Source: an uncultured archaeon
GTDB taxonomy: Archaea > Thermoplasmatota > Penumbrarchaeia > JASLWR01
Length of the DNA stretch: 64,000 nt
NCBI GenBank assembly: GCA_964430885.1
Contig: CAYSHM010000001.1
Span: 187,280 to 251,279 of the forward strand
Direction of reading: 5' to 3'
Part shown: positions 47,942 through 64,000 of the stretch, in pieces
Position numbering within the stretch: position 1 is the first letter of the stretch
Layout of the letters: every line of letters begins with the position of its first letter
Position numbers and translations under genes: made by a program
The notes under the pieces: generated by a model
What the model was told of the DNA's origin: nothing
The model's database searches: none
What the model saw: the letters and a program-made list of their open reading frames with translations, nothing else

Positions 47942-49087
47942 CTAATTTTTTAAAATATCGGAATATACTTTTATCAGCTTCTCTTCCTGGCGTTCCCAGC
48001 TGTATTCTTTCTCAGCAGCCTCGATTCCTTTCCTTCCCAGTTCCTCCAATTTACCGGTTTTTTTCTGGAGATTCAAGATTTCCCTTTTTACTGATTTCTT
48101 ATTAAAATCAGCTGTGATTCCGCATCCCACTTTCTCCACAAAATCTCCCGAGTAGGTACCTTTACTGCAGATGACTGGCCGACCGCACACCATTGCTTCA
48201 AATACCTTGTTCGGCAGTCCAATTTTGGTAATGTGATCATTTGGATCGAACATGCAGACCACAAGATCTGATTTTTTGGTTGTAGGTATGACCTGGTCGA
48301 TGGGTATGAGCCCTTTAAAATCAACATTTGATAATCCACGGCATTTTTTCTGAAGCTTCTTCTCAAAATCCGGAGATCCCTTCCCGGCAATAATACAATG
48401 GACGTCTGGAATTTCTTTCATGAGTTCTGCGAGCTGCATAACAAACCGGGGCTTATTCAATTTACCAATATAAGCTAGGGTCAATTTCCGATTCTTTGTA
48501 GGTATGTATTCAGCATTCTTTAGATTCTTGGCATTGAGAATTATGGTTATTTTTCTCTTTGTGATGTTTTTAAAATAATCTCTAAGAGGCGGACTGACCG
48601 TCAAAACTGCATCGGCCATGTCGATCTGTCTTTTCTCTTTATTGATGTAATGATTTGCCCACCAATTCGGCAAGCTTCTTCTCACCATATAGCCCCAAAT
48701 CTCATGTGCATCATATATTAGAGGTATCTTCAGTTTTTTCTTCAATCTGATACCCGCCGTCAATGTGTCAAGATCATTGCTGTGAATAATGTCAAACTTC
48801 TCCTTCGAATGTAGTTTCATGCCGAGTTTTAGCGCCCTTCTATTCCAGGATGGAAGTCTGAATATGTCGAATGGTAAGAGTTTCATTGCTCCCTTCGTGG
48901 GGATGCGGAATACCTCTACATCGTTGATATTTTCCTTGCTCTTGGATGAACCTGTCCTGTCCCAACCTATTACCGTTATATGAAATCCGTTTTTCATGAG
49001 GGAACGCGCTTCATTGTTTACACGAGGGTCATGGGTGAAAGTGTTTGTAACCAGCATGAGAACGCGTTTACCCTTCATTGTATTCAC
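47942..49087 (-). CDS. GT4-family glycosyltransferase
   Basis: DPRV..EA.SL, H.NDLDTL, YDAHE, PNKVFEAM..GRPVI. Confidence 0.88.
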   Translation of the reverse strand: MNTMKGKRVLMLVTNTFTHDPRVNNEARSLMKNGFHITVIGWDRTGSSKSKENINDVEVFRIPTKGAMKLLPFDIFRLPSWNRRALKLGMKLHSKEKFDIIHSNDLDTLTAGIRLKKKLKIPLIYDAHEIWGYMVRRSLPNWWANHYINKEKRQIDMADAVLTVSPPLRDYFKNITKRKITIILNAKNLKNAEYIPTKNRKLTLAYIGKLNKPRFVMQLAELMKEIPDVHCIIAGKGSPDFEKKLQKKCRGLSNVDFKGLIPIDQVIPTTKKSDLVVCMFDPNDHITKIGLPNKVFEAMVCGRPVICSKGTYSGDFVEKVGCGITADFNKKSVKREILNLQKKTGKLEELGRKGIEAAEKEYSWERQEEKLIKVYSDILKN

Positions 49088-49185
49088 CGTTCTTTGAATT
49101 CCTTTTGTTGGCTTATTTATATATCCAAGTCAAATCCATTATATAATAATTATATGTTGGTGATTTTAAAATACAGGATAATTGA

Positions 49186-50286
49186 ATGGACATGATGCGG
49201 GGACATATAATGAAGATTCTATTTGTTCAAAATCAGCTATGCAGCAGAGCCTGGAAGGAAGCAAAGGTTTTGAATACCTGCGGCATAGATCTCTCACTGA
49301 TTGAACTAGGCTATGAAAGCAGTTCAAAGGATCATTCAATTTTTAAAAATATATATATTATTCCAGTAAACCCTGATATGAACAGTATGGTCAAGGGTAA
49401 AAATAAAATCATTAAAGGATTGAAGAAGATTGTAAAGGAAAATAATTTCGATTTGATTCATATTCACAATGAACCTGATAATCTAGGATATTGGGCTAAG
49501 AAGAATTTGGATATTCCCGTAGTACATGATGTTCACGACCTTATGAGTTTAAAACCTATACCTTGGGCAAAGGGTCCGAAAAAGTGGATTGTTAGAAAGA
49601 TGTACAATAAATGGGAGAAAGAGATATGCCAGAATGCAGACGGGATCATGGCCCCTTCCCTTCCGATGATGAAATTTATTGAAAAGAAATACAGTCCGAA
49701 GAGAATGGCCTATGTGGATAATAAACCCGTGAAAGAATCTTTTTCAAGGAAGGAAAAGATTCCTGGTGATCGAATTCATGCTGTCTATTCGGGTGGCATA
49801 GGTATGGATCCTGAAAGTCCCAGGTATCTGTGGCCTATGTTCAAGGAATTATGCGATCATGGCCTGAAGATACACCTATACCCACCGGTTTTTAAGAAGA
49901 ATGAATATGAACCTATAAGAAGCAAATGCAATGAAATCAAAGGAATGATTTTTCATTTGCCAGTGGCCCAGCATGAAGTAATACCTGAGATAAGCCAGTA
50001 CCATTTTGGTTTGGTCATATTCAAGATACATACTGAAAATATTAAAATGGCCACATCCAACAGAGTTTACGAATATCAAATTGCAGGTTTACCCATTATA
50101 ACAAATGATATCGGTCACATTGCTGAATATATTAAAGAGAAAGGCTGCGGGGAGGTCATTTCCGAACCTGATGATATAAAAGGAATACTATCATCAAATA
50201 AAGATTATATTTTGGATACTGACGATTGTTTTATGGATCCTGGACCCATCATTGATCTCTATAAAAAAATATTAAATAAGAAATGA
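49186..50286 (+). CDS. GT4-like glycosyltransferase
   Basis: H.HNEPD, HDVHD, NRVYEY..AGLPII. Confidence 0.8.
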   Translation: MDMMRGHIMKILFVQNQLCSRAWKEAKVLNTCGIDLSLIELGYESSSKDHSIFKNIYIIPVNPDMNSMVKGKNKIIKGLKKIVKENNFDLIHIHNEPDNLGYWAKKNLDIPVVHDVHDLMSLKPIPWAKGPKKWIVRKMYNKWEKEICQNADGIMAPSLPMMKFIEKKYSPKRMAYVDNKPVKESFSRKEKIPGDRIHAVYSGGIGMDPESPRYLWPMFKELCDHGLKIHLYPPVFKKNEYEPIRSKCNEIKGMIFHLPVAQHEVIPEISQYHFGLVIFKIHTENIKMATSNRVYEYQIAGLPIITNDIGHIAEYIKEKGCGEVISEPDDIKGILSSNKDYILDTDDCFMDPGPIIDLYKKILNKK

Positions 50287-50324
50287 AAAATTCCTATGAT
50301 TTGGTAGTTTGAGCCATTATTATT

Positions 50325-51413
50325 CTAAGAATGAATCAATTCCGATTTAAGAATCTTCAGGATCTTTCCAGCTGCATTTCCATCACCGAAAGCCTCGGTC
50401 TGCTCTTCATCGGGTTGGAACTCGTTCACAGCTTTGATAATTCCTTCCCTGGAATGGCCAACAAGAACATTCCAACCGTCGAATACGGTTTCGGTCCATT
50501 CAGTGTTTTCCCTAATGGTGATGCATGGTTTCTTTAGGAAATAGGCCTCTTTCTGAACACCGCCTGAATCAGTTATGATCTTCTTTGAATAGTGCATAAG
50601 CGCAACAAAATCCAGATATCCTAATGGGTCAAGCAGTCGGATATTGGTGTTTTTGATCTCGTCCATCAGACCCGATGAAGCTAGGTTCTTTCTTACCCGG
50701 GGATGTGCGGGGAACGCTATGATATCTTCGGTTTCCATCAGTGCCCTTAAAATTGTCCTCAGCACTTCGGGATTATCGGTATTTCTAGGGCGGTGCAGCG
50801 TCATCACCGAAAAATCGTTTCTTGAAAGGCCAGACATGAAAACGTTATTTGATCTTGAAAGTGCTCTTTCCCTCATCCTTAGAAAAACGTCTAACATCAC
50901 ATCGCCAACATTATAAACTCCGTTGGTAATGCCTTCCTTTTTCAGATTTCCCCTTGCTGTTTCAGTGGGTATGAACAATATGTCGGAAATGACATCGGTG
51001 AGTATGCGGTTGATTTCCTCGGGCATTTCCCTGTCGAAGCTCCGCAATCCTGCTTCAACATGGGCAACCTTGATATGAAGTTTTGATGCGGCCAATGCAC
51101 CCGCGAGGGTGGAGTTTGTGTCTCCGTAAAGCAGTACAAGATCAGGCTTCTTTAGCAGCATTGCCTTTTCCAATTCGATTAGCATCATGCCGGTCTGATA
51201 ACCATGCTCTCCTGAACCCACGCCCAGATTAATGTCAGGGATGGGTATTTCGAGTTCTTGAAAAAATACATCGGACATGGTTTCATCATAATGCTGACCT
51301 GTGTGGACAAGTATTTCGGTGAAATCATTTCTTAATACCCTGCTGAGGGCACTGGCTTTTACGAATTGGGGTCGTGCTCCAACCACGGTCATTATCCTTT
51401 TCATGTGCATCAT
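50325..51413 (-). CDS. wecB: UDP-N-acetylglucosamine 2-epimerase (non-hydrolysing)
   Basis: GARPQFVK, HTGQHYD, GDTNS, HVEAGLRS, TDSGGVQKEA. Confidence 0.93.
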   Translation of the reverse strand: MMHMKRIMTVVGARPQFVKASALSRVLRNDFTEILVHTGQHYDETMSDVFFQELEIPIPDINLGVGSGEHGYQTGMMLIELEKAMLLKKPDLVLLYGDTNSTLAGALAASKLHIKVAHVEAGLRSFDREMPEEINRILTDVISDILFIPTETARGNLKKEGITNGVYNVGDVMLDVFLRMRERALSRSNNVFMSGLSRNDFSVMTLHRPRNTDNPEVLRTILRALMETEDIIAFPAHPRVRKNLASSGLMDEIKNTNIRLLDPLGYLDFVALMHYSKKIITDSGGVQKEAYFLKKPCITIRENTEWTETVFDGWNVLVGHSREGIIKAVNEFQPDEEQTEAFGDGNAAGKILKILKSELIHS

Positions 51414-51696
51414 TTCCCGTGAACCTGGTTTATAAGTAAAGGTGGTTAATGCTATTTTTAACTAACTCTGGATTTCGATTGGGATTGCTATGGTAGTTAC
51501 ATTTTTAGTAGGACTAAATATCTAATTATATCATTTAAGGCAAATAACCGCGTGACTTACAATAGTATTTTTAAAGGTAAAAGTTATATTTCGGATTCAC
51601 TTTAATATTTCGAGATGTTATTTTTGGTTCAATTGAATGTGATAGAATTACTGAAGAAATAGAATGAAACAATCTAACGAGTAGAGGTTAATTACG

Positions 51697-54600
51697 ATGA
51701 AGAGCAAAGTGAAATTGTCAACTGCGGTATTTTTAATAGTCCTATTGCTGGTATTACCATCAATTTCCTCCCCCATTGATAAATCTCCAAGTTTAGAAGG
51801 ACGTTCCAAAGAATCAGACGATTGGGTTTATGATGATGAAACATGTGGTTTTCAACCCCTAGCGGCAAGGGAAAGCACTACCCCCTCATTTAATCAAACA
51901 GTTATAATATCCGAAGGTGAGCTTGAAATAAACGGTGAACCTGTATATCTTTACGGTGGAGAACTCCAGTATTTCAGGATCCGGGATGAAAATCATGATG
52001 CATCAGTTACCTGGTCCTTGTGGGAGCAGACCTTGGATCAGATGAAGGATGCAGGAATGAACTTTGTCAGTTTCTACATACCTTGGGACTACCATGAGGA
52101 ATCCGAAGGAGTATTCAATTTCAACGGTTCAAAGGATCTGGACCATTTATTGGATCTATGCTATCAAAAGGGATTCTACGTGATGGCAAGGCCGGGTCCC
52201 TATATTATCGCTGAGTGGCCAACCGGCCCCGGTAGCTTTGGTGCTGTCCCTCAGTGGTTCAAAGATAGCCATCCCGAGACCCTGCAGGTAAAATCAGGAG
52301 GCGCCCATCACGATCAGCCTACATATCTGCATCCCCAATTTCTCAATTACACCGAGAAATGGTTCAGACGGGTCAATCCCATTCTGCAGAAATATATTCA
52401 CCAAAAACCCTGTATTGTCATGCTTCAGCTGGATAATGAACCCAATTTTCTTTGGGTCGACCACTTCACTGTGGATTATTCCAATACCATGCGGGATTAT
52501 TATCATGGTTATCTTGAGGATAAATATGCACAAATACATGAATTGAACTCTGTTTACAATTCATCCCATTCCTCATTTGAGGATGTGGCGCCTCCTGAAG
52601 ATAAACCGGATAATATGGATGAGAATCCTTGGGTTTGGGATTGGTTCGATGCAGCACAGTGCTATATTATGGATTATCTTCTTATTCTAAGAGAAATGTG
52701 GGAGGATATGGGGATCAGGGAGAAGGATGTGATGTTCGTGACCAACGACGGAACTGCGGACATACCACTCAGGGACCTTCTCATGTGGGACGGCTTCAGA
52801 AAGAATGTTCCCGGTCTTTCCACCTTAGACATATATACTAAAATGTGGCCTACGAACTCCCACATAATGGATATTCCTTTCTCACCTGATTACTATGTCA
52901 AGCTTTTCGAATACTGCGCTGAAAAGGTACGGGGGGCAGGTGGTTATTCCATGGGACCCGAGATACAGGGCGGTTGGTGGATCGACCCCCCTTCGGTTTC
53001 AGGCAATGAGACCCGGATGCTGCTGACCAAGCTGATCGGCCACGGTTTAGATGGGATTGGGATTTACGTGGTCAGAGGGGGTTTCAACATGGATAACAGC
53101 GTATATGACTTCCAGGCCCCCATATCACCAGAAGGCGCTACTCGTCCCCGTTATGATGTCCTCAAGCTTTTTGGGGAAAATGTATTGGCACCATTCGGAG
53201 AAAAGCTCATGGAATGTCAGGACGTTGAAGACCCCATCGCAGTAGCAAATTACTGGCCGTATATGAATCCTCAGGACGGTGTAGAGGAGAACATGCAGTA
53301 TTTCTACGCCTATGAGAATGCAGCGCTCATGGGGATGCTGTTGTCCGCGGGTTTCAATCCTGATGTTATTGACCTTCATGAGGAAGATATGAATAATCTG
53401 TCAGATTACAAAGCCCTCTTCTTTCTCAATCCTGGTTTTGTCTGTCCTGATGATATGCTGAAACTACGGGACTATGTGAGGAATGGAGGGAATCTGGTGA
53501 ACTTTCTATGGCCCGGTAGCAGGGATCTCCAGTGGAAGGGAAATCCAGTGAACGCGGGAGTTGTATCCGATCTGTTCCCAGGTGAATATGTGAATACCTG
53601 GGATTGGTGGTATCCTCCCTACGGTGATAATATGGTGTTCTCCCTTGGCGAGGTTGACGGGACGGTATGGACCTACAATTACCAGACGACCTGGGATATC
53701 ACAGCGTATCCCGATTGTACCCCTTTTCTTCTGGACAGGTCCGACAATGTGGTTGGTTATTACAAGCCCTTTGGTAATGGGACCTCATATTTCATGGGAA
53801 CCTATCTTTCACGGGACTATAATAATGATAAATATTACAGCATGGGTGCGGATGATATCAATTCCAAATCCCTCCTCATGTCCGCGATTCTAGAGGAATG
53901 CGGAGTTAGTAGCGTTATTGGTACTGGTGAGGCTTTCAAGGAAGTATGGGCCAGCAAACCTCGGGGAAGAGATAATGAGGTATTTATATTCGGTGTGAAC
54001 AGTCTTGAGAACAGGGATGATTTCCATCTGAATTTTCACGATATCTCCGCCCTAGGTCTTACTGAGAATGCGGAATATGAAGTATCAGAATTGTTATCTG
54101 GCAATACTATAGGTAAGATCACCGGAAATGATATTCAGGAATCCGGAATTGACATTATGGTTGATGGTCATTCCAGCTTTATACTTCATATTAAGGCGAA
54201 TATAGAATTGGACCTAACTCCAGGGTGGAATCTTATATCCCTGCCCACTCTGGAAGATGATACACCTATTGAAGAAGCCATGAATTTTGTCAGCGGTAAA
54301 TACGGGATGGTGTGGGCATATGATCCCGAAAACTTGAACGGTCCTTGGCTCTCATATGCTCCTGACCGACCACCCCATTTCAACACTCTAGAAGGTGTAG
54401 GGCCCCATGATGGACTGTGTGTGTATATGAATGAGGGCCCTCTTGAAATTACCTTATCGGGGTCAACAAGCTCACAGAAAGAAATTCAATTAAGGGAAGG
54501 ATGGAACTTATTGGGTTATCCGCAGCTTGAAGTCAGGTCTGCAGACCATTTCCTTGGAGAATTACCTGTAGAATCGATTTCATTTTTTGGAGGGGGCAGT

Positions 54601-54699
54601 GACCCTTCAAAGCTTGAGAGTATGGATTTAAGCAGCTTTTTCATGCCTGTCAATGCATATTGGATAGAGGTATCCAGAGATACTGTTATCACCATTTGA
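51697..54699 (+). CDS. Secreted GH35 glycoside hydrolase with C-terminal 'GWNL' repeat domain
   Basis: Signal peptide; GGELQYFR, YIPW..HE..EG.F.F, RPGPYI.AEW, QLDNE (acid/base), PEIQGGW (nucleophile); LTPGWNLISLP and LREGWNLLGYP. Confidence 0.85.
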   Translation: MKSKVKLSTAVFLIVLLLVLPSISSPIDKSPSLEGRSKESDDWVYDDETCGFQPLAARESTTPSFNQTVIISEGELEINGEPVYLYGGELQYFRIRDENHDASVTWSLWEQTLDQMKDAGMNFVSFYIPWDYHEESEGVFNFNGSKDLDHLLDLCYQKGFYVMARPGPYIIAEWPTGPGSFGAVPQWFKDSHPETLQVKSGGAHHDQPTYLHPQFLNYTEKWFRRVNPILQKYIHQKPCIVMLQLDNEPNFLWVDHFTVDYSNTMRDYYHGYLEDKYAQIHELNSVYNSSHSSFEDVAPPEDKPDNMDENPWVWDWFDAAQCYIMDYLLILREMWEDMGIREKDVMFVTNDGTADIPLRDLLMWDGFRKNVPGLSTLDIYTKMWPTNSHIMDIPFSPDYYVKLFEYCAEKVRGAGGYSMGPEIQGGWWIDPPSVSGNETRMLLTKLIGHGLDGIGIYVVRGGFNMDNSVYDFQAPISPEGATRPRYDVLKLFGENVLAPFGEKLMECQDVEDPIAVANYWPYMNPQDGVEENMQYFYAYENAALMGMLLSAGFNPDVIDLHEEDMNNLSDYKALFFLNPGFVCPDDMLKLRDYVRNGGNLVNFLWPGSRDLQWKGNPVNAGVVSDLFPGEYVNTWDWWYPPYGDNMVFSLGEVDGTVWTYNYQTTWDITAYPDCTPFLLDRSDNVVGYYKPFGNGTSYFMGTYLSRDYNNDKYYSMGADDINSKSLLMSAILEECGVSSVIGTGEAFKEVWASKPRGRDNEVFIFGVNSLENRDDFHLNFHDISALGLTENAEYEVSELLSGNTIGKITGNDIQESGIDIMVDGHSSFILHIKANIELDLTPGWNLISLPTLEDDTPIEEAMNFVSGKYGMVWAYDPENLNGPWLSYAPDRPPHFNTLEGVGPHDGLCVYMNEGPLEITLSGSTSSQKEIQLREGWNLLGYPQLEVRSADHFLGELPVESISFFGGGSDPSKLESMDLSSFFMPVNAYWIEVSRDTVITI

Positions 54700-54709
54700 G
54701 GAATCTAAT

Positions 54710-56773
54710 ATGAATGGAAAGGATATAAATCTTATATTGGGATCATTTCTAATTTTATCAGCTCTTTCAATTCAGTTTTCAGATTATGCTGATTCGGCCC
54801 CTGTCATACCTTATTCCAGGTGGGGGACTGCCACTCTGGACGGTGAGGCAATTGGCAACGGTATGGAGATTTTTGCCCTTATAGATGGGACAATTTATGC
54901 ATCAAACCATACTTATAACACAGATGGATCTTACTGCCTGGACATCCCGTCACAGCCTACTGATGCCGATACGGCTAAGGAAGGTGGTATTGAAGGTGAT
55001 CTGATATATTACATATTCCAGTCGGATAATAGGACTTTTTTGGCTGAAGAAACTGATTCCTACACACTCTCTGGATTGAGCTGGCAGGTGAATCCCCTCA
55101 CTTTTTCAAGTTCACGCTCGGTGATACATCCATTGATAAATGAGCTGATTCCCGAACCGATTGATGGCGGCAATGATTATATTTATCTTTACAATCCGGA
55201 TTTCCAGGATATTGATCTGGAAGATTGGATATTGATAGACTCTACAGGTTTTGAGATGGAATTATTTGGGAATATTTCAGGAAGAGGTACGAGATATGTG
55301 GATCTGGGAACCAAGCGAATGGAGGGCCAAGATGGGTATCTGCGGTTATCGTGGTGTCCAGATCAATTCACTTCCAATAAGATATATTATTCCTTGGATA
55401 GGGTTGAATGGGGTAATTCGGATAACCCAGTATCCAATAGCACCCATCCGGATTTTACTAAAGTATCATCGTCGGGATCAGGTATGAAAAGAAATCCCAA
55501 TGGGACCGATAGTGATGACAGCAGTAAGGATTTCATCCTTCAGAAGCCTGCAACTCCAAGACCCAAGGGGACAATCAGGGGGTACGTCAAGGATGGGAAT
55601 GGAGATCAGGTCTTAAACTCGGAATTGGAGTTGTCAAGGAATAATACTCTCTTCTTAAAGAAAAACTTGATAGATTCAGATTATTTTGAATTAAACCTTC
55701 CTCAAGGAATATACATTCTGAGGATAAATTTCGCCGGATACGTCACATCAGAAAGATATAATATAGAAATAATTGCAGATAGTGAATCCTGGGTGAATGT
55801 GACCCTTGCAAGGTCCGCAAATTCAAGCGAACCCAATGGTATGTTGTACGGGACCGTATATGACCATAATGATGAAATTTGGAATGTAAGTGTAGTCCTT
55901 AAATCTTCTGAGAATTATACTGAAAACGCCATTGCTACAGATATATTCGGATATTACGAGTTCATCATTCCTTCAGGTTCATATAATGTCCATCTGTCCA
56001 AAAAAGGCTATGAAAATCAGTCATATCACAGAATATCCATCCACCCTGGGGATGAGTTGAAATTGGACATTTACATGTGGAAAATATCTGATCACAATAA
56101 TTCGATTTCAGCTAACGGTAGTGTCGGTGGGAGGGTCATAGATGAATCCGGACTGGCGTTTAAGGCGTTGAATCTTGAGATTGTAAACACTACTTCAGGT
56201 ACAGCTCATTTTAGTCTTACTGACAAAAATGGATATTATTCGTTTTCACTTGAACCTGGATTCTATAGGTTGGATGTAGAATATCCCAATTACGAATTAT
56301 GGAGTCAGGGGTTCGAAATTGAGCGGGGCACAATTACAGTCATGAATGTGGTTCTGCGCGGATCTGAACCAGTAATAACCTTGATATTCCATGTAATAGA
56401 TGAAAACTCAAGGGGTATCAATAACGCTTCAATAGCATTAATGATCGATGACACTCAAGAATTGAAAATGAAGACGAATGTGGACGGTTATGCCACTTTT
56501 ATAAAGATCCGATATGGGGGGGTTGGATCGATTATTGATCACCTGGATTATGAAATATGGACCGACAACATTCAAATTCATACTGATAAAAGAATACAGT
56601 TCATCGAGGTTGTATTGGAATCAAAAATTATCGCTGATGTACCGGAAGCCGAGGATGATACGGATTATTCTATCGTGATGGTTTTGTTAGTTGTAATTTT
56701 AATTATTATACTTTCATTCATTATCTTATTTGCAATTTTGATACTCCGAAAGCGCAAGCAAGAAATGGATTAA
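54710..56773 (+). CDS. Surface protein with a lamin-tail-like domain, carboxypeptidase-regulatory-like repeats and a C-terminal TM
   Basis: INEL.P......YIYLYNP....IDL.DW.L; G.V.D......TD..G.Y.F.L..G.Y repeats; TM followed by RKRK. Confidence 0.8.
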   Translation: MNGKDINLILGSFLILSALSIQFSDYADSAPVIPYSRWGTATLDGEAIGNGMEIFALIDGTIYASNHTYNTDGSYCLDIPSQPTDADTAKEGGIEGDLIYYIFQSDNRTFLAEETDSYTLSGLSWQVNPLTFSSSRSVIHPLINELIPEPIDGGNDYIYLYNPDFQDIDLEDWILIDSTGFEMELFGNISGRGTRYVDLGTKRMEGQDGYLRLSWCPDQFTSNKIYYSLDRVEWGNSDNPVSNSTHPDFTKVSSSGSGMKRNPNGTDSDDSSKDFILQKPATPRPKGTIRGYVKDGNGDQVLNSELELSRNNTLFLKKNLIDSDYFELNLPQGIYILRINFAGYVTSERYNIEIIADSESWVNVTLARSANSSEPNGMLYGTVYDHNDEIWNVSVVLKSSENYTENAIATDIFGYYEFIIPSGSYNVHLSKKGYENQSYHRISIHPGDELKLDIYMWKISDHNNSISANGSVGGRVIDESGLAFKALNLEIVNTTSGTAHFSLTDKNGYYSFSLEPGFYRLDVEYPNYELWSQGFEIERGTITVMNVVLRGSEPVITLIFHVIDENSRGINNASIALMIDDTQELKMKTNVDGYATFIKIRYGGVGSIIDHLDYEIWTDNIQIHTDKRIQFIEVVLESKIIADVPEAEDDTDYSIVMVLLVVILIIILSFIILFAILILRKRKQEMD

Positions 56774-57120: not shown

Positions 57121-60100
57121 ATGGAAAAAAATATTGATGGGAAGAAAAGAATGCACAAGATATTGCTTATTAGCGTTATCTGTGCTCTTGTGCTGACCGG
57201 AATAGCAATTCTGGTAGCAGACTTTTTTGAAAGCGATTCTAATTCAAATGTAACGGTAGATGAAGTGGTTTTCCTGCCCTACCAGAATGAAAAGACCGTC
57301 GATGCCCAGACAATGAGCTACGGTATGGCAGCCAAATACAGCGATGGCACTACTGGTAATCTTCCAGATATGAGCAATTATTATGTGGCTTCATTGGAAA
57401 TGGCTGAAGATGATAGTTTGGAAATCTCCTCAACTTACACATCCCGAGCAGGAGAAGAAACCTGGTCTTTCAATAATGTAAGTACAGGGAGATATGGAAA
57501 TCTTCAGAATTGGCAGGCCCCTCAAGATGGCATATATATCATTGAGGCCTGGGGTGCGGAAGGAGGTAAGAGCAATGGCCAGAGCGGTGGTATGAATGTT
57601 ATGGGTGGAAAAGGTGCCCGTATAAAGGGCGATTTTGAGTTGTCCCAGGGCGATTCATTGGATATACTGGTCGGACAAAAGGGAGAAGATGCCAATTGCG
57701 GTTCTGGTGGCGGCGGTGGAACGTTCGTGGTCAAAGGGAATGATCTTTTAGTGGCTGCAGGCGGTGGTGGTGGCGGTTTCCACTGTCATTGGGCAGGATA
57801 TGGACTTGAAGGTGTTGATGGCCAGGCTGGCCAGGATGGTACAGCTGGAAACAATCATCCCAACAGGCCCAGCAGGCCAGGTGGTACCAATGGTCAGGGT
57901 GGATCGGGATATTTCGGCGGCGGTGGAGGTGGTTGGTTATCCGGTGGTTATTGCAATACTTATGGTGACGGCGGCGGCGGTGCCTATCCTGGAAACGGTG
58001 GGCGTTATGGCGGTGGATACGGCGGCGGCGGCGGAAGATACAGCGGATGCTGCGGCGGTTCTGGAGGCGGTGGTGGCTACAGCGGAGGCAGTGTAGGCGG
58101 CTCCGATGTCACCGCTGGAGGTGGTGGTGGATCCTTCAATGATGGTGATAATCCTGATAATGAGGGCGGTATAAGGTCTGGCCATGGAATGGTTGAGATC
58201 ACTTATACCGGCGGCGGTACATCATCCGAATACGGCCAGGAGTTCGAGGAAGGAACCGGAGTTTCAATGACATTCAATAACTGCAGTGCTACCGGCCGGT
58301 ACGGCCCAACCCAGGGACAGGTAAACTCCTCGTATTCCGGAACGGATCTGGCGGGGCAGGTCACAATCAACACCCAGGGAGTCCAGGAGTGGACAGTCCC
58401 TTCAGATGGAACATATACCATTGAGGTATGGGGTGCACAGGGAAATCATAGTGTCTATAATGGGGGATATGGTGCCCGTATGAAGGGTGAATTTGACCTT
58501 GACCAAGGCCAGGTTCTAAGCATAGTCGTTGGTCAGCAGGGTGGAACTGAATCCGGAAATTCCAATAGGTCCGGAGGCGGAGGCGGAGGGTCTTTCGTGT
58601 ATGAGAATAATACTTTATTCATAGCTGCTGGCGGCGGCGGTGGTCATACTGGTTACAGCGGTGGCGGTTATAATTGGAGGGGTAACAGTGATGCAGAGGC
58701 AACCGAGAACGGCAATGCTGGTTGTGGATGGGGTCCAGGACAGGGCGGAGCAGGTGGTACCAATGGTAACGGAGGCGGCGGTGCTTATTGGGGTGGTGCG
58801 GGAGCTGGTTGGCTTTCCAATGGCGGTGACGCCAATGCTTACGGCGGCAATCAAGGCGGCAGGACCCGCACAAGTGGATGGATCGGTGGAGATCCTACAT
58901 CCTATGGAGGCATAGGCGGTTTCGGCGGCGGAGGAACGGGCGGTTACGCCTATGGCGGCGGCGGCGGCGGTGGAGGTTATTCAGGTGGCGGTGCAGGAAC
59001 CGATCCCGGATCAGGCGGCGGTGCAGGTTCATATAATGATGGGGAAAACCAGGATAACGAAGCAGGGATCAATTCAGGACATGGGGAAGTTGTGATATCA
59101 ACACCACCCAATGCTATTGCCACTTATTACAAGGAAACATTCTCGGATCCGCTTTCAGGAGATAATGCCACTGAGTTCGGCACAGCCTGGAGAGCCAACA
59201 GCGATCTTGAATCAGCGAGAAATGAGAGAATAGTAACTGAACCTATTCTGGTGGAGGTAGCCAATTATACTTTTACTAATTGCGGAAGCACAGGTCGAAC
59301 AGGTCCGAACCAGGGGGATGTTAACTCAGAATACAGCGGAACAAGCCTTGAAGGTGATGTCTCAATAAATACCCAGGGTTATCAGGAATGGATCGTACCT
59401 GAAACTGCAACATATACAATAATAGCACATGGCGCTGAAGGAGGGGAGGTCAATGGGAGCAATGTTGGAGGTAAAGGTGCAAAGATGCAGGGTGATTTTG
59501 ATCTTAATCAAGGTGAGAAGTTAATAATCCTTGTTGGTCAGAGAGGTAGTAATCCTTCTAATTATAACTATGAAGGCGGTGGTGGCGGTGGTGGAACATA
59601 TGTTACCGAAGGCAATAATTATAACTCATCTACGGCCTTGATAGTGGCTGGAGGAGGCGGCGGAGCTACTGCATCATATCAGGGGGTCAATCAGCCTGGT
59701 CAGGGCGGTTTGATTACCAATACAGGTACTGGCGGTGGAAGCTGGGGATCTTATCATGATAGCGGCGGTGCAGGTTTCGTTGGGAATTCACAGGGCGGAT
59801 ATGCTCACAGTTTCAGAAATAATGGAATTGGTGGGAATTCCAACTATAATGGTGATGGAGGTTTTGGCGGCGGTGGGGCATCCATCCATCATCCTGGCGG
59901 TGGAGGTGGCGGGTATCACGGCGGCATGGGGGGCCATAATTTTTCGACAACTGCCAGAGGAGGCGGTTCTTACAATAACGGGGATAATCCGGATAACACA
60001 GCCGATACAAATACCGGTCATGGTTTGGTTGAGATAGTTAGATATGAGGAGATGGACGATCCAGGTTTCGACGCCTATGAGGAGGAAGAAAGAGGACCTT

Positions 60101-63100
60101 ACTGCTGGGTTATGGACAATCCTGAACCGGTGGTCAGGGATCTTAATCTAAATGAACTCACAATGCATATAGGTCTTGATGCTGGAGAGGAGGATGTTAC
60201 CGAACTCACCTTGGACTTTGCAGCTGCCATATACGGCAACTGCGATCCAATGCCCCCAGTATTCAGCAATGGTGATGAATGGACCTATGATGGAGTGGCA
60301 GTCAGTACCAATGGAGTGAATTGGTACAAGGTTTGGTCCCCGGTAAATCCTGCTGGCTGGTATATGCATGAAGGATTTGACCTTCTCTCCATCCTACCCA
60401 ATAACAGCGTGGATTCTCAAGAGGACCTTTTCATCAAGTTCATGCAGTACGGAGGCGGTGCTTTCCCTGATGAAACAATTCTTTGGGATGAGATAACCCT
60501 TAGAGCAAATCCGGAAGTGGAATTCCTATTCGAGGTTCCATCTCTTGAGGTTTCCATTGATGCGGACCCTGAACCCTTCAGGATTTACGCTGAAGGCCAG
60601 GGCGATCCGGATATGGCTACTGTGAATGTGAATATAGATGGTATTGGTGCCGCACTCGGCGGTGGAAATACCCGGGCGGACCCCATAATATATACATTCA
60701 ACAATTGCGGAGCTACTGGCTATTCAGGTCCCAGTCAAGCACAGATGAACAACCAATATTCAGGTACACCCCTTGACGGATTGATCACAAGGGTTGGCGA
60801 CGGGATGCAGAGATGGACCGTTCCTGAGTCTGGATTATATACCATTGAAGTGAGAGGGGCCCAGGGAGGTAATTCCAATAATTATCAGGGAGGCAATGGT
60901 GCTATATTGAGGGCGGACTTTGAACTTGAACAGGGCGACGATTATCTTGTTCTGATCGGACAGCGGGGCATCAATGGCGGGTCAGGAGGCGGCGGAGCCG
61001 GAGGTAGTTATGTCGCAAAGGGCAATAACTACAATTCCGCGGATCCGTTCATTATTGCCGGCGGCGGCGGCGGCGGTAATGATTATGGTCAGGATGGCGG
61101 TAATGGAAAGGATGGTCGTACTCACACCAGCGGTGGAGATGGGAACCGTGGGAGCGGAGGTACCAATGGAAACGGAGGTACATCCGGGTCTTGTTCTAAC
61201 AGTGCTCCGGCCGGCGGCGGTTTTTTCACCAATGGAGAGTGCTGTAATTGCTGGTGCGGACCCAGTGGAGCTGGGAAGGCCTTCAGAAATGGAGGGAACG
61301 GAGGCAGCGGCTGCGGTAACGGTTGCTATTTCGGAGGTTTTGGTGGAGGCTGTAAGACCTGGACATCAGGTGTTGGGGGTGCAGCAGCAGGTGGATATTC
61401 AGGCGGCGGCGCACCCAATCACTGCTGTGGTAGAGGCGGTGGTGGCGGTTCGTTCATCGATAACTCTGGTGTCAATGTTGCAACTTCAGATGGTCAATAC
61501 GATGGCTCTGGAACATTTGGTGGTGATAACATAGAGAACCTGAACTCCTGGAGACAGGGTCATGGTGAAGTTATTATCACATATGTTGGAGGTGGTGATC
61601 CTGCTGCTTCAGAGGTTAGATTCACCTATGAAAGAGCTGATGGAATCATAATCGACAACGATCCAGGTATCACTGAGATAACATGGTCGTCTGCCGATGA
61701 GAATCCTGACGACGATGCAGTTTTTGTTGGTGATGAGTTCGATATTGAATTCACTATATCCTCAGCAGAGGGTTTTGCCGGAGAGATAGGACCCTTCAAT
61801 ATTCAGTATGTATCCTGGGACAATGAAATAATCAATATGGATCTTGAATCACCATATCTCAGGGTTCAGGAGTTCTCCTATGCCGATTTCAGCGAGGACT
61901 CAATGTTCATTGCGAACAACCATGGACAGATACCAGGTCAGGAGAACTTGATCACTCTGGCATCCTATGATGATCTGGAGCCACCCGGCGAGATGATACC
62001 CCAGGAATTTCATAACTGGATCCTGGACTTCCCGACTGTGGATGATGTATGGCTTGAAGATACACCTGAAAGTCATCAGAAATATCTGCATATCGAAGGT
62101 GGGGAACCGGGTGATGAAGGTACCATCACCGTTACCCACGGCGCTGCTAGGGGAACGGGGGATACCTTTGTTCTGCCGATCACCCTGACATCAGGACCGG
62201 CCAGCACAGCCACGGTAACAGCTTTGGACACATATATGTACAGCATGACCGACATTCTCACCGTATCTGTTGAAGATAATTTCGGTAATGCAGCTGTGGA
62301 CTGGACAGGCAAGATGTATATACGTCTTGATGCCGGAGAGGTCGATTTCTCGGCCGAGGTGGAGGTCGAAGATGACGGTGGTTCCTACGACGGCTGGCTC
62401 TACTATGAGTTCACACCGGCTGATAGGGCGCTGCATACCTTCTTCATTACCCCGTGGACATACATTGGTGACGGCAATACCATAATCCACTTTGAGACAA
62501 TTGCCGGACTCAGTGCCGATGTTTCATTGGACGTGGATGCAGGTCCCGTCCATCATCTTCTGGTCACTCCTGACTGGGATGAGATGGGTGTTGCACCGAG
62601 ACCCGAGAACTACATCTATGCCGGTGAGACCCTCTATCTTGACGTGCAGGCAGTTGACATGGGCGATCATGTGTCAACCACGTATACTGCGCCCATAATC
62701 GCAGAACATAATTCATCTGCAACGGGTGAACTGGAACCTGAAACCTGGCGGACCGAAACGTCAAATGTCGCTCTTGAGATGATAGACGGAGAGATCACCG
62801 TTGCCGACCAGTTGACCGAGTTCGTATTCTATCAGGCCGCGGAGAATCTGGAGATCAGCATGAAATCCGGCATCAATCATGCCGTGAACGGCAGGCTCGA
62901 TCTTGAAGTAAGGGCCGGACCTCTGGCTGAGCTTGCACCCATCCCCGACCCATCTACCATGGATGCTCTGCATGCGGCCGATGGTCATCTTCTGATCCCA
63001 GTAAGCGGGACTCAGTTCTTCGATGTTCTGGCATTTGACGAATGGGGTAATCCTGTCACGGAGTACGATATCACAGATTGGGATGCAGATGAAATTATCG

Positions 63101-64000
63101 GTATGATGGACGATGCTGAATTTCAGGCGGTTGACTACTTCAGTTTGAATGATAACCCTGACATCAAGGAAGGTGAGTATTCCTACATGGATGGAATGGT
63201 CTATATCACAGCTGAGGACACTGATGAGTTCCTTGAGGGCGAGGTCACCCTGCAGATACCCGTTAGAGTGTTCAACAGGCTGAATGTCTGGCTTGTGGAT
63301 GAGGAGATAGGGGCCACCGAGTTCCTTCTGGACACACCCTTTGAACTGAGGCTGCCGGTCCACTACAAGACTCCTGCTGCCTCATTCCCTGACAACCTGC
63401 AGCTCCTGGTCAAGTGTTCAATATATCATGAGGTCAACATCCAGGGCGTGGAACAGGGTGAAGAGCATGTGATCCATACCAGCGGAGCTCCCAACGGAAC
63501 CTTCAGACTGCTTTATCTGCATGCTGACCAGGAAGGTGTAAGAGAATACGGCGCACTCATTCCATTTGAGAGCATGGCCAATGCTCTGAACTACGACAAT
63601 GATAACGGAGATAACCTGAACTACCTTAAGGTCGAGCTAATCGATATTGCCGGTGGTGCTGATATGAGTGACTTCCAGTGGAATGCTGATGATGATTCAG
63701 CACTCATAGAACTCCATGCCGTGGCGGCCCCCCCTGCATCCGAGACCCCGTCATTCGCTCCCGGATTGGCAATAATGATTCTGGCCCTCCTTGCAGGGGC
63801 GGTCATTGCCAGCCTCTATTCCAAAAGCGATGAGAAGGGACGGAAAGGGAAGAAGGACGAGGATGGTGTTTCACCTGTTATAGCTATCATTCTCATGGTG
63901 GCCATAACCATCGTTCTTGCAGGTGTTCTCTGGCTCTGGGTGTCAGGACTTGTGGATACGCAGAAGAGCAACGATATCGAGTATGTTGATACTGCCTGGG
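57121..64000 (+). CDS. Giant surface protein (at least 2293 aa, 3'-truncated) with four ALK/LTK-like glycine-rich modules, a TPSF+TM segment and an internal archaeal type IV pilin N-terminal domain
   Basis: ATG 57121 preceded by GGAG; signal peptide MEKNIDGKKRMHKILLISVICALVLTGIAIL; I found no frame +1 stop before the window end, which explains its absence from the ORF track; window ends in TPSFAPGLAIMILALLAGAVIASLYSKSDEKGRKGKKDEDGVSPVIAIILMVAITIVLAGVLWLWVSGLVDT. Confidence 0.88.
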   Translation, partial: MEKNIDGKKRMHKILLISVICALVLTGIAILVADFFESDSNSNVTVDEVVFLPYQNEKTVDAQTMSYGMAAKYSDGTTGNLPDMSNYYVASLEMAEDDSLEISSTYTSRAGEETWSFNNVSTGRYGNLQNWQAPQDGIYIIEAWGAEGGKSNGQSGGMNVMGGKGARIKGDFELSQGDSLDILVGQKGEDANCGSGGGGGTFVVKGNDLLVAAGGGGGGFHCHWAGYGLEGVDGQAGQDGTAGNNHPNRPSRPGGTNGQGGSGYFGGGGGGWLSGGYCNTYGDGGGGAYPGNGGRYGGGYGGGGGRYSGCCGGSGGGGGYSGGSVGGSDVTAGGGGGSFNDGDNPDNEGGIRSGHGMVEITYTGGGTSSEYGQEFEEGTGVSMTFNNCSATGRYGPTQGQVNSSYSGTDLAGQVTINTQGVQEWTVPSDGTYTIEVWGAQGNHSVYNGGYGARMKGEFDLDQGQVLSIVVGQQGGTESGNSNRSGGGGGGSFVYENNTLFIAAGGGGGHTGYSGGGYNWRGNSDAEATENGNAGCGWGPGQGGAGGTNGNGGGGAYWGGAGAGWLSNGGDANAYGGNQGGRTRTSGWIGGDPTSYGGIGGFGGGGTGGYAYGGGGGGGGYSGGGAGTDPGSGGGAGSYNDGENQDNEAGINSGHGEVVISTPPNAIATYYKETFSDPLSGDNATEFGTAWRANSDLESARNERIVTEPILVEVANYTFTNCGSTGRTGPNQGDVNSEYSGTSLEGDVSINTQGYQEWIVPETATYTIIAHGAEGGEVNGSNVGGKGAKMQGDFDLNQGEKLIILVGQRGSNPSNYNYEGGGGGGGTYVTEGNNYNSSTALIVAGGGGGATASYQGVNQPGQGGLITNTGTGGGSWGSYHDSGGAGFVGNSQGGYAHSFRNNGIGGNSNYNGDGGFGGGGASIHHPGGGGGGYHGGMGGHNFSTTARGGGSYNNGDNPDNTADTNTGHGLVEIVRYEEMDDPGFDAYEEEERGPYCWVMDNPEPVVRDLNLNELTMHIGLDAGEEDVTELTLDFAAAIYGNCDPMPPVFSNGDEWTYDGVAVSTNGVNWYKVWSPVNPAGWYMHEGFDLLSILPNNSVDSQEDLFIKFMQYGGGAFPDETILWDEITLRANPEVEFLFEVPSLEVSIDADPEPFRIYAEGQGDPDMATVNVNIDGIGAALGGGNTRADPIIYTFNNCGATGYSGPSQAQMNNQYSGTPLDGLITRVGDGMQRWTVPESGLYTIEVRGAQGGNSNNYQGGNGAILRADFELEQGDDYLVLIGQRGINGGSGGGGAGGSYVAKGNNYNSADPFIIAGGGGGGNDYGQDGGNGKDGRTHTSGGDGNRGSGGTNGNGGTSGSCSNSAPAGGGFFTNGECCNCWCGPSGAGKAFRNGGNGGSGCGNGCYFGGFGGGCKTWTSGVGGAAAGGYSGGGAPNHCCGRGGGGGSFIDNSGVNVATSDGQYDGSGTFGGDNIENLNSWRQGHGEVIITYVGGGDPAASEVRFTYERADGIIIDNDPGITEITWSSADENPDDDAVFVGDEFDIEFTISSAEGFAGEIGPFNIQYVSWDNEIINMDLESPYLRVQEFSYADFSEDSMFIANNHGQIPGQENLITLASYDDLEPPGEMIPQEFHNWILDFPTVDDVWLEDTPESHQKYLHIEGGEPGDEGTITVTHGAARGTGDTFVLPITLTSGPASTATVTALDTYMYSMTDILTVSVEDNFGNAAVDWTGKMYIRLDAGEVDFSAEVEVEDDGGSYDGWLYYEFTPADRALHTFFITPWTYIGDGNTIIHFETIAGLSADVSLDVDAGPVHHLLVTPDWDEMGVAPRPENYIYAGETLYLDVQAVDMGDHVSTTYTAPIIAEHNSSATGELEPETWRTETSNVALEMIDGEITVADQLTEFVFYQAAENLEISMKSGINHAVNGRLDLEVRAGPLAELAPIPDPSTMDALHAADGHLLIPVSGTQFFDVLAFDEWGNPVTEYDITDWDADEIIGMMDDAEFQAVDYFSLNDNPDIKEGEYSYMDGMVYITAEDTDEFLEGEVTLQIPVRVFNRLNVWLVDEEIGATEFLLDTPFELRLPVHYKTPAASFPDNLQLLVKCSIYHEVNIQGVEQGEEHVIHTSGAPNGTFRLLYLHADQEGVREYGALIPFESMANALNYDNDNGDNLNYLKVELIDIAGGADMSDFQWNADDDSALIELHAVAAPPASETPSFAPGLAIMILALLAGAVIASLYSKSDEKGRKGKKDEDGVSPVIAIILMVAITIVLAGVLWLWVSGLVDTQKSNDIEYVDTAW
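63850..63954 (+). other. Internal class III (prepilin/archaellin-type) signal peptide, Pilin_N/DUF1628-like
   Basis: KKDEDG|VSPVIAIILMVAITIVLAGVLWLWVSGL matches the archaeal pilin consensus (A/G)VSPVIG.ILMVAIT..LA.V; predicted cleavage after the Gly codon 63865-63867. Confidence 0.85.

Follow-up and report, generated by a model that had tools for sequence, protein, structure and literature searches.

The giant gene and its parts

The window, by which we mean the whole 64,000-nucleotide stretch of DNA analyzed here, closes with a single open frame on the + strand (57121..63999), the coding sequence of a giant adhesin-pilin precursor; all features given below are on the same strand. The frame runs up to the window end, which is also the contig end and lies inside the pilin module, and 2293 aa are encoded before it. 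A second assembly has the same protein complete (P0005, 2410 aa), on a contig of 409,974 bp. It is 100% identical over the 2293 aa, and its frame goes on to complete the 161-aa pilin before the stop.

In the translation, a basic N-terminus is followed by a hydrophobic stretch (57160..57219, residues 14-33) that is likely to act as a Sec signal or signal-anchor. A profile match places an ALK/LTK glycine-rich domain (PF12810, cut-off 24.5) at 59404..60009 (residues 762-963), with 61.8 bits in the window protein and 104.2 bits in a paralog, and further glycine-rich repeats resembling it were seen by eye in the window protein. The membrane-proximal ectodomain (approximately 63230..63741) is better conserved among paralogs than the remaining adhesin. 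It leads to ETPSFAP, a motif resembling those of sorting signals and predicted to lie on the outer face (63742..63762; the ETPSF part, read from the DNA, is 63742-63756), and then to a second transmembrane helix with a predicted out-to-in orientation (APGLAIMILALLAGAVIASLY, 63757..63819), which was recognized in the sequence and is also a helix in the structure model. The predicted cytoplasmic loop that follows, SKSDEKGRKGKKDEDG (63820..63867), ends with the glycine encoded at 63865-63867, after which cleavage is predicted. The Gly|Val bond falls between 63867 and 63868. After it, 63868..63999 encode the opening 44 residues of the mature type IV pilin, with the N-terminal assembly helix; in complete copies the module has 161 aa. 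The initial annotation had described one frame running from an N-terminal signal through an ectodomain, a transmembrane helix and a charged loop to a pilin, and the DNA and its translation confirm this.

Identity of the pilin module

The module is a true archaeal type IV pilin. Both profiles that had been proposed as a check gave matches above their cut-offs: Pilin_N (PF07790, cut-off 25.2) with 30.4 bits in the truncated window protein and 35.8 bits in a complete paralog, and TIGR02537 (cut-off 20) with 36.3 bits. The cleavage motif, DEDG|VSPVIAIILMVAITIVLAGVLWLWV, has charged residues, a glycine at position -1 and a hydrophobic helix after the cut. An AF2 model of the pilin had a pLDDT of 92.9, and the three best matches in a Foldseek search of the PDB were solved archaeal type IV pilus subunits (8rey_A, 5.0e-5; 8fj5_A, 6.6e-5; 9myg, 4.4e-3), with TM-scores of only 0.38-0.48. 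The module shares the helix plus beta-sandwich fold of the solved Cuniculiplasma, Haloferax and Natrinema pilus subunits. The ESM Atlas gave no usable match. The cleavage pattern and the N-terminal assembly helix are those of archaeal type IV prepilins, which carry a class III signal cut by FlaK/PibD. By contrast with these, the signal is not N-terminal behind a short leader: it is preceded by about 2250 residues of the precursor, including a transmembrane helix, and the +1 position is residue 2250 of 2410.

Paralogs and selection on the pilin module

Nine further complete paralogs with the same junction are present within contigs of the same genome, which makes ten copies in total. They share a layout of signal or anchor, ectodomain of ~1300-2200 aa, PSFAP motif, transmembrane helix, basic loop, D-x-x-G|VSPVIA and 161-aa pilin, and several of the ectodomains contain ALK/LTK glycine-rich repeats. 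Among the paralogs, 0-5 of the 161 pilin residues differ, with dN of 0.009, dS of 0.68 and dN/dS of 0.013 over 36 pairs. Omega was 0.002-0.03 in the pilin versus 0.11-0.37 in the adhesin, and it was still 0.11-0.21 in the last adhesin windows before the junction. Judged by these substitution rates, the pilin, and not the adhesin, is under extreme purifying selection. Between genera the pilin module is just about 57% identical.

The dS of the pilin module (0.4-1.0) is lower than that of the adhesin (1.5-2.0, which is saturated), which suggests that past gene conversion contributed to the uniformity of the module. Recent gene conversion as the sole cause of the identical modules is ruled out by dS values of 0.39-0.92 with a dN of 0.009.

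Integrity of the junction

At the DNA level the pilin modules share ~90% identity, and the assembly breaks at them, with one contig (C1) ending inside a module and another (C37) in the last 19 codons of a further one. This raises the question of whether the fusion is an artefact, either a misassembly across repeats or a set of decayed pseudogene fusions. However, the nine paralog junctions lie within contigs with unique flanks, and the complete protein in the other assembly, which provides the contig extension called for by the initial annotation, has the same junction. For the proposed read check, a 243-nt Logan contig from a public DNA run, possibly the source sample, spans 63670-63912 and bridges the junction with zero differences and zero indels. 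Misassembly is ruled out by these three results. The layout moreover recurs in 55 other genomes and the module is under purifying selection, and an artefact of either kind has practically no chance of being the explanation. We conclude that the fusion is real, being neither a chance event nor a misassembly.

It had also been stated that the pilin is preceded by no stop and by no plausible separate start. The first half of this statement stands. The second half has to be amended because an in-frame ATG occurs within the transmembrane helix, 29-34 codons upstream of the cleavage site, in 10/10 paralogs. This codon could mark two overlapping genes, with the pilin made from the internal start or from an internal transcript and the fusion protein being a minor or unprocessed product. 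Contigs from RNA libraries (two metatranscriptomic libraries of one study) cover parts of the gene on either side of the junction and none bridges it, which would fit overlapping genes, but such contigs hold pieces of the gene and are mute on transcription, on transcript ends and on continuity across the junction. Methionine is, on the other hand, common in transmembrane helices, and a leader of ~30 aa from this ATG would begin with a hydrophobic half-helix, whereas most of the 103 standalone forms of the pilin have K/R-rich leaders of 7-15 aa. In addition, the ~50 fused proteins that we found all read through from adhesin to pilin with no stop in between. From the sequence, a separate start for the pilin appears unlikely, and we give the overlapping-gene explanation as a whole very little credence.

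Distribution of fused and standalone pilins

A search of Thermoplasmatota genomes, as suggested in the initial annotation, returned at least 56 of 301 with a match that includes the junction. In a search of 1.84 billion proteins, about 50 of the top 150 cluster representatives were fused, in proteins of up to 5559 aa. The layout is particularly common in one family (f31), where it occurs in 45/47 genomes in proteins of ~4500-5500 aa. These fused giants are the largest proteins of the family and are otherwise almost without Pfam domains, and the layout is more than a peculiarity of one genome. The phylum to which this family belongs includes the marine Poseidoniales.

The same pilin family is found both fused and standalone. 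In a tree the two forms interleave, with 7 changes between them, at least 3 of which are forced by well-supported branches. Homologs consistently split into two genes would have counted against a fusion, but fused forms dominate among the closest relatives. One genome of the same family (G002) has the pilin as standalone genes only, three of them in tandem; the first 26 mature residues are identical and the leader is about 15 residues long. We considered this genome as a split version of the fusion and ruled this out because no giant gene lies directly upstream of the pilins. A related-locus search of genome contigs with the junction of the genome under study found nothing.

The predicted membrane hairpin and its two candidate signals

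The residues around the predicted cleavage site are strongly conserved. Position -1 is A or G in 48/48 fused and 103/103 standalone forms, position -4 is D in 42/48 fused forms and D or N in 71/103 standalone forms, positions -3 and -2 are acidic in both, and VSP at +1 to +3 is invariant. The leader positions -4 to -1 of the fused forms thus follow the pattern of standalone prepilins of the same family. A second helix that served just as an anchor would not need these cytoplasmic residues.

The out-TM-in-TM-out topology proposed previously is consistent with the basic N-terminus and hydrophobic anchor and with the K/R-rich loop between the helices, all read from the sequence. The hairpin was also predicted as two helices in a single-sequence AF2 model of junction and pilin, which had a pLDDT of 44.5 and was used for the helices only. 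Predictions of a complex between the last ectodomain and the globular domain of the pilin gave 0.00, 0.61 and 0.00 in three uncontrolled runs and do not bear on whether the two bind.

The segment before the loop has the tripartite shape of an archaeosortase signal: PSFAP, a 21-residue helix and a K/R-rich loop. A [SGAEP]FxP motif occurs 35-50 aa upstream of the cleavage site in 46/48 fused proteins, the F and the second P of ETPSFAP are invariant in our alignment (A1), and the fused protein of one genome (G007) has a literal PGF. The ETPSF-TM-basic segment remains under the cut-off of every sorting-signal HMM; one search gave no match to TIGR04126 or TIGR03024, and another gave 9.3 bits for PEF-CTERM (cut-off 23). 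The terminal SPGF signals of the same genome, used as controls, are also under the PGF-CTERM cut-off; only 1/3 matched PGF_CTERM at all, with 8 bits against a cut-off of 24.5. A terminal TPEF signal reached 12 bits on PEF-CTERM (cut-off 23). The PSFAP segment is unlike these terminal SPGF and TPEF signals. Nor is it at the extreme C-terminus of the precursor, where 161 residues come after it; because of the pilin that follows, it would become C-terminal only after the predicted A24 cleavage. In this arrangement the loop SKSDEKGRKGKKDEDG probably has two roles, serving the sorting-like signal as its basic tail and the class III signal as its leader.

Processing enzymes and pilus machinery

The initial annotation listed pibD, artA and pilB/pilC as genes to look for, and all were found in this genome. 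A FlaK/PibD-type A24 peptidase is encoded at G000:C5:80401-81531; against PF06847 it reaches 49.5 bits, above the cut-off of 29.9, and in an alignment with FlaK (3s0x, E 6.5e-9) the two Asp motifs are both present. The Pfam Peptidase_A24 model gave no match in the genome at E <= 0.001, and the peptidase was found via its relatives only. Archaeosortase A matches TIGR04125 with 124.9 bits (cut-off 75), an ArtC-like enzyme scored 82.4 bits against a cut-off of 100, and a third member of the family gave a weak match. Several PilB/PilC sets are present, with 5 T2SSE and 7 T2SSF matches. Every family with fused forms has an archaeosortase, which is weakly informative because archaeosortase-family genes occur in 222/301 Thermoplasmatota genomes.

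A proposed two-product precursor

We favor, with some reserve, the idea that the prepilin peptidase cuts the internal signal, which would free the pilin and leave the adhesin with an archaeosortase-type signal at its C-terminus. The N-terminal signal would export the ectodomain and the second transmembrane segment would stop transfer, after which the pilin helix would re-insert and the globular domain of the pilin would end up outside. On the cytoplasmic side, the FlaK/PibD-type A24 peptidase could then cut between G and V in the way that it processes ordinary prepilins, and the mature pilin would be available to one of the PilB/PilC machines. The same cut would leave an adhesin ending in motif, transmembrane helix and basic tail, the three-part arrangement seen in archaeosortase substrates, and archaeosortase A or a paralog may next process this signal. 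Since each of the ten or more adhesin paralogs would deliver the same pilin protein, all of the products could feed one filament or docking site, with one pilin per adhesin. The polyprotein interpretation first put forward is in this way supported in part: the topology, the enzymes, the leader pattern and the switches between fused and standalone forms speak for it, with the internal cleavage itself staying a prediction. The recurrence of the layout across genomes, the identity of the module as a true pilin and the purifying selection on it also count in favor of the two-product precursor.

A different possibility is that the hairpin is never cut. The two helices would stay joined and hold the adhesin in the membrane, and the pilin-like domain would be a cis-acting foot that docks to the envelope or to a pilus machine and never enters a filament; in a variant, cleavage takes place at PSFAP alone, by an archaeosortase, and leaves a TM-loop-pilin remnant behind. 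A transmembrane hairpin would make a stable anchor, and two helices are indeed predicted. An internal signal is unlike that of any characterized A24 substrate, and the adhesin genes lie apart from the PilB/PilC genes and from the peptidase gene. This explanation does not account, however, for the prepilin pattern at -4 to -1 in 48/48 fused proteins across the phylum, for the interconversion of fused and standalone forms or for the near-identical 161-aa module of the paralogs with its very low omega, and we regard it as rather unlikely.

If the precursor is cut as proposed, the freed pilin would most likely be a minor, adhesin-associated subunit rather than the bulk subunit, because a 2200-aa protein for each subunit of a filament would be very expensive; this is speculation on our part. 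A broader scenario strikes us as unlikely. In it, maturation by two proteases and pre-assembly of pilin and adhesin in cis at the membrane surface would lead to a type IV pilus tipped or decorated with adhesin. This pilus would be a type IV counterpart of FimH and the chief means of attachment for Poseidoniales and their relatives, which are abundant planktonic archaea of the sea.

Comparison with known systems

None of the components, type IV pilins, prepilin peptidases and archaeosortases, is new in itself. To our knowledge, in every described case the class III signal is N-terminal, with a short leader in all described A24 substrates, and the sorting signal is C-terminal. In the precursor described here, both signals are carried by a single internal membrane hairpin, in which the basic tail of the sorting-like signal also forms the class III leader. 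Our literature search found no paper on an internal class III signal or on a pilin fused behind an adhesin, though supplements may list such proteins, and the accessible portions of PMC4858521 and PMC6098224 contain no exception to N-terminal class III signals.

PGF-CTERM and PEF-CTERM archaeosortase signals likewise consist of a short outer motif that ends in F, a transmembrane helix and a basic cluster. The present signal differs from them in its motif, PSFAP, which has a conserved P at the second position beyond the F, and in lying away from the C-terminus of the precursor. Abdul Halim and colleagues reportedly described in 2017 a fusion protein of Haloferax volcanii in which a tripartite PGF signal lies centrally and is cut by ArtA. 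According to a review, ArtA cuts the central PGF signal of this protein to give two fragments (PMC6098224). This is a precedent for the processing of a sorting signal away from the terminus and counts in favor of the two-product precursor; it also shows that ArtA alone is able to cut such a signal and favors the archaeosortase variant of the uncleaved anchor. As far as the same text goes, that fusion is strain-specific and accidental and has a downstream NifU domain (PMC6098224), whereas the layout described here is conserved across the phylum and its downstream part has a processing signal of its own.

Bacterial tip adhesins of the PilY1/PilC type are held by minor pilins, and modular type IV pilins graft an extra module at their C-terminus because their N-terminal helix must be free. 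Both, like FimH and like the protein described here, pair each adhesive module with one pilus subunit. FimH, a chaperone-usher protein, also has the same order of parts, with the adhesin (a lectin domain) N-terminal and the pilin C-terminal, but its assembly system is unrelated to type IV pili. Unlike in modular type IV pilins, the adhesin here is N-terminal, which is workable only with a membrane hairpin and cleavage.

A single gene probably gives rise to two products, an anchored adhesin and a subunit for pili. Cleavage at the internal site would extend the substrate rules of A24 peptidases, add polyprotein processing to archaeal surface biogenesis and explain how a pilin, which requires a free N-terminus, can come after another protein in one chain. 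The layout offers a testable handle on particle attachment by uncultured marine plankton. For annotation, a C-terminal Pilin_N domain behind PSFAP-TM should be taken as a precursor and not as a gene-calling error.

Additional observations

An unrelated 1718-aa protein encoded beside PilB/PilC on another contig of this genome (G000:C6) has two internal junctions of transmembrane helix, basic loop and class III signal, and the second of these also lies in one open frame in another genome (G005). This protein, too, counts in favor of the two-product precursor. An ATPase and a ~1000-aa permease of the ABC/FtsX type adjoin the array of paralogs on contig C26. With tblastn, the other paralog-locus contigs gave no further copy of this pair except a distant ATPase match on contig C2. 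A similar ATPase/permease pair was seen by eye near the giant gene of a further genome (G069).

One frame joins an adhesin to a pilin

The window contains a single frame that runs from the ATG at 57121 to the last base, which is also the end of contig C1, and encodes 2293 aa. As read from the translation, the protein starts with a basic region and a 20-residue hydrophobic stretch, and these are followed by an extracellular-looking ectodomain of about 2200 residues. Next come ETPSFAP (63742-63762), a 21-residue hydrophobic helix (63757-63819), a loop (SKSDEKGRKGKKDEDG; 63820-63867) and a pilin beginning VSPVIAIILMVAITIVLAGVLWLWV... at 63868. The initial annotation, which described ETPSF and a helix, a loop and a pilin N-terminus in one frame, was exact to the base. 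The translation bears this out, as do Pilin_N (30.4 bits for the incomplete window copy, 35.8 for a complete paralog; cut-off 25.2) and TIGR02537 (36.3 bits; cut-off 20).

The ectodomain matches the Pfam ALK/LTK glycine-rich domain (61.8 bits; cut-off 24.5), a domain chiefly known in animal receptor kinases. Several such repeats, with G runs and TFxNCGxTGxxGP starts, were seen in 57121-61600. Paralogs and relatives have Kelch, BNR or Ig-like domains in place of the glycine-rich part and keep the C-terminal module. The upstream neighbours (47942-56773) are surface and glycan genes encoding two GT4 glycosyltransferases, a UDP-GlcNAc 2-epimerase, a 1000-aa GH35/GH42-like protein and a 687-aa CarboxypepD_reg-repeat protein, with no pilus genes among them.

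The window's own genome (G000) contains nine more complete genes of this layout, five in tandem on contig C26, two on C15 and one each on C37 and C2, and in each a stop codon lies 161 residues past the G↓V site (the arrow marks the class III bond). The protein P0005 (2410 aa), encoded on a 409,974-bp contig in a different assembly, agrees with the window protein at every one of the 2293 residues and provides the 117 residues absent from it. In a public marine DNA run, which may be the source sample, a 243-nt contig spans 63670-63912 with zero differences, and there were no indels among the matches listed in four public runs, all from one study. The paralogs, P0005 and the bridging contig exclude the misassembly at 63700-64000 for which a check had been advised. 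The adhesin-pilin fusion is real and in one frame, and the odds of an artefact are negligible.

Among the paralogs of G000, the DNA of the pilin modules is approximately 90% identical, the preceding sequence approximately 65%, and the sequence past the stop is unrelated. The near-identity of the modules explains the assembly break at the end of C1. C37 breaks off in the final 19 codons of a pilin module (G000:C37:15252-15308), and C1 breaks off after 44 codons of one (63868-64000); these ends may belong to the same gene, with a collapsed repeat of some 300 bases between them.

The fusion is widespread in the phylum

We searched 1.84 billion cluster representatives with a profile of the junction and pilin of six divergent fused proteins, and 6786 proteins matched at E ≤ 0.001. 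We parsed 159 proteins, namely the best 150 of the 6786 plus matches of an earlier search. In about 50, many of them 5'-truncated fragments, the pilin signal lies more than 75 residues from the N-terminus and always close to the C-terminus; the longest of these proteins has 5559 aa. Another 103 are ordinary prepilins of 135-225 aa, and six lack the motif by the pattern used.

The initial annotation had suggested looking in Thermoplasmatota for a TM helix followed by an internal Pilin_N. Among the matches listed, at least 56 of 301 genomes of the phylum (≥80% complete; window's own included) have a match containing the junction, counted when it begins at profile position ≤20; this is a lower bound, with 282 further matches beyond those listed. 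By family, the counts are at least three of four genomes in f1, the single genomes of f3 and f5, at least six of 23 in f14, and at least 45 of 47 in f31, where frames reach about 4200-5500 aa if contigs permit. Close relatives of the f14 protein are recorded as Candidatus Poseidoniales, Thalassarchaeaceae and Thermoplasmata, which identifies the phylum as Thermoplasmatota. Two database proteins, P0038 (4595 aa) and P0036 (3639 aa), have hardly any Pfam domain besides the C-terminal Pilin_N (P0036 has one Big_9). Uncharacterised sequence accounts for more than 4000 residues of this Poseidoniales-type giant protein, which is near-universal in its family.

The junction resembles a double signal

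Of 48 non-redundant fused proteins, 46 have the motif [SGAEP]-F-x-P 35-50 residues ahead of the cleavage site, a spacing equal to one TM helix plus a loop of 13-28 residues. Its F and the subsequent P are invariant in the alignment of junction and pilin. The loop has K/R at its start and acidic residues at its end. At the predicted cleavage site, position -1 is A or G in all 48 fused and all 103 standalone proteins, -4 is D in 42 of 48 fused and D or N in 71 of 103 standalone proteins, -3 and -2 are mostly E/D in both, and +1 to +3 are invariably VSP. The last four loop positions of the fused proteins follow the same pattern as the leaders in the standalone set of 103, and these are presumably the positions where prepilin peptidase reads its substrate. 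Judged by these alignments, the junction is kept as a double signal. A plain hairpin anchor that stays uncleaved offers no obvious role for the conserved cytoplasmic residues -4 to -1, and we consider it unlikely. Separate translation of the pilin from an ATG conserved within the TM helix is far less probable still.

A FastTree phylogeny of 138 modules (43 fused, 95 standalone), from which modules <120 aa and exact duplicates were left out, requires at least seven state changes, at least three of them forced by well-supported branches; of the rows scored as standalone, at least P0049 is probably a piece of a fused protein cut short. On this tree, fused and standalone pilins interconvert. G002, a genome from the window's family, has the pilin as standalone genes only, and in one of these a leader of about 15 residues precedes the same first 26 mature residues.

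Processing enzymes and a proposed route

Pfam Peptidase_A24 had no match in G000 (completeness 91.6%) and gave weak matches in relatives. Using the relatives' proteins, tblastn located a 376-aa gene (51% identical) at G000:C5:80401-81531. Its product scores 49.5 bits with Arc_PepC_II (cut-off 29.9) and aligns with the solved FlaK (3s0x) at E 6.5e-9, with DIRTRK and GGADAK opposite the FlaK aspartate motifs DFRSRE and GGGDGK. This FlaK-type gene, archaeosortase A (124.9 bits; cut-off 75) and five T2SSE plus seven T2SSF matches at several loci answer to the pibD, artA and pilB/pilC that had been proposed as genes to look for. None of the T2SSE/T2SSF genes in G000 adjoins the adhesin genes.

The exosortase/archaeosortase family has three genes in G000, the third weak. 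An ArtC-like gene scores 82.4 bits, below the cut-off of 100. It sits between two VIT-VWA proteins (G000:C4:150481-154137; L045 1762-6915). Both are similar to TIGR03788, the 'marine proteobacterial sortase target' family, at scores of 178-185 bits that stay under the cut-off, and one ends in TPEFPW-TM-RRRIKD. The locus resembles a cassette dedicated to an archaeosortase and its substrates. Five G000 proteins end in (S or V)PGF-TM-RR(K). The PSFAP segment is under every sorting-signal HMM cut-off, and the genome's own terminal SPGF signals also miss that of PGF-CTERM.

The analysis shows the architecture and its conservation, that the module is a pilin, and that the genome encodes the enzymes. 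We favor the idea that the A24 peptidase cuts the internal class III site, and this would free the pilin. The adhesin would be left with a motif-TM-basic tail at its end, which an archaeosortase could then handle, although we hold this step more tentatively. According to passages of a cell-surface review, ArtA cuts even a central PGF signal (PMC6098224). More speculatively, the pilin would act as a minor subunit or one at the tip, carrying or co-localising with its adhesin one-to-one.

Searches of the openly accessible literature listed no paper that describes a class III signal inside a protein or a pilin placed behind an adhesin. The layout is absent from passages of an archaeal type IV pili census (PMC4858521), the same review (PMC6098224) and a Poseidoniales genome study (PMC6461757). 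The components are known; their arrangement and the processing logic it implies are unfamiliar.

Fold and selection of the pilin module

The module was modeled from an alignment of the window-type module, 86 standalone relatives and the module of another genome, G003. The prediction (mean pLDDT 92.9) has a 27-residue N-terminal helix and a beta-sandwich. Of the three best Foldseek PDB matches, two have E ≤ 0.001, namely the filament subunit of Cuniculiplasma divulgatum (5.0e-5) and the type IV pilus subunit of Haloferax volcanii (6.6e-5). The third, Natrinema PilA1, is above it (4.4e-3), and TM-scores were 0.38-0.48.

Across eight paralog modules, six of 161 positions vary, with 0-5 differences per pair. 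Over 36 pairs, dN was 0.0089 and dS 0.68 (range 0.39-0.92), a ratio of 0.013. In 40-codon windows, omega was 0.002-0.03 in the pilin versus 0.11-0.37 across the adhesin's final 520 codons, where dS is saturated (1.5-2.0). Identity of the module falls to about 57% between genera of the window's family. Two other lineages each have a near-identical module common to proteins with very different ectodomains, glycine-rich in one and Kelch or BNR in the other. This pattern is concerted uniformity under selection, most simply because the modules of all paralogs have to be able to replace one another within one assembly or at one partner. Gene conversion at an earlier time may also have contributed.

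A second protein with internal signals

A 1718-aa protein (G000:C6:139990-145143, minus strand; L032) adjoins two PilC genes and a PilB, and places internal class III signals at least once in a pilus operon. Behind its signal peptide lie two internal junctions, each with a TM helix, a long basic loop and a class III signal (G↓VSPVIG at residue ~511 and A↓VSSVVG at ~1450), both without the PSFAP motif. Pilin_N scores 80.5 bits, and the third module falls just short of the DUF7266 cut-off (26.8 bits against 27.6). The protein looks like a three-module pilin polyprotein. In another genome, G005 (C835), the second junction likewise lies within one open frame, and internal class III signals are therefore a broader habit of the lineage.

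A MacB-like ABC ATPase and an FtsX-type permease of about 1000-1400 aa lie directly past the five-gene adhesin-pilin array (G000:C26:35984-39771; L009 7985-11775). This pair was not found at the other paralog loci of G000; a similar pair is near a giant pilin-ended gene of a distant genome (G069:C1, L052 5041-9881).
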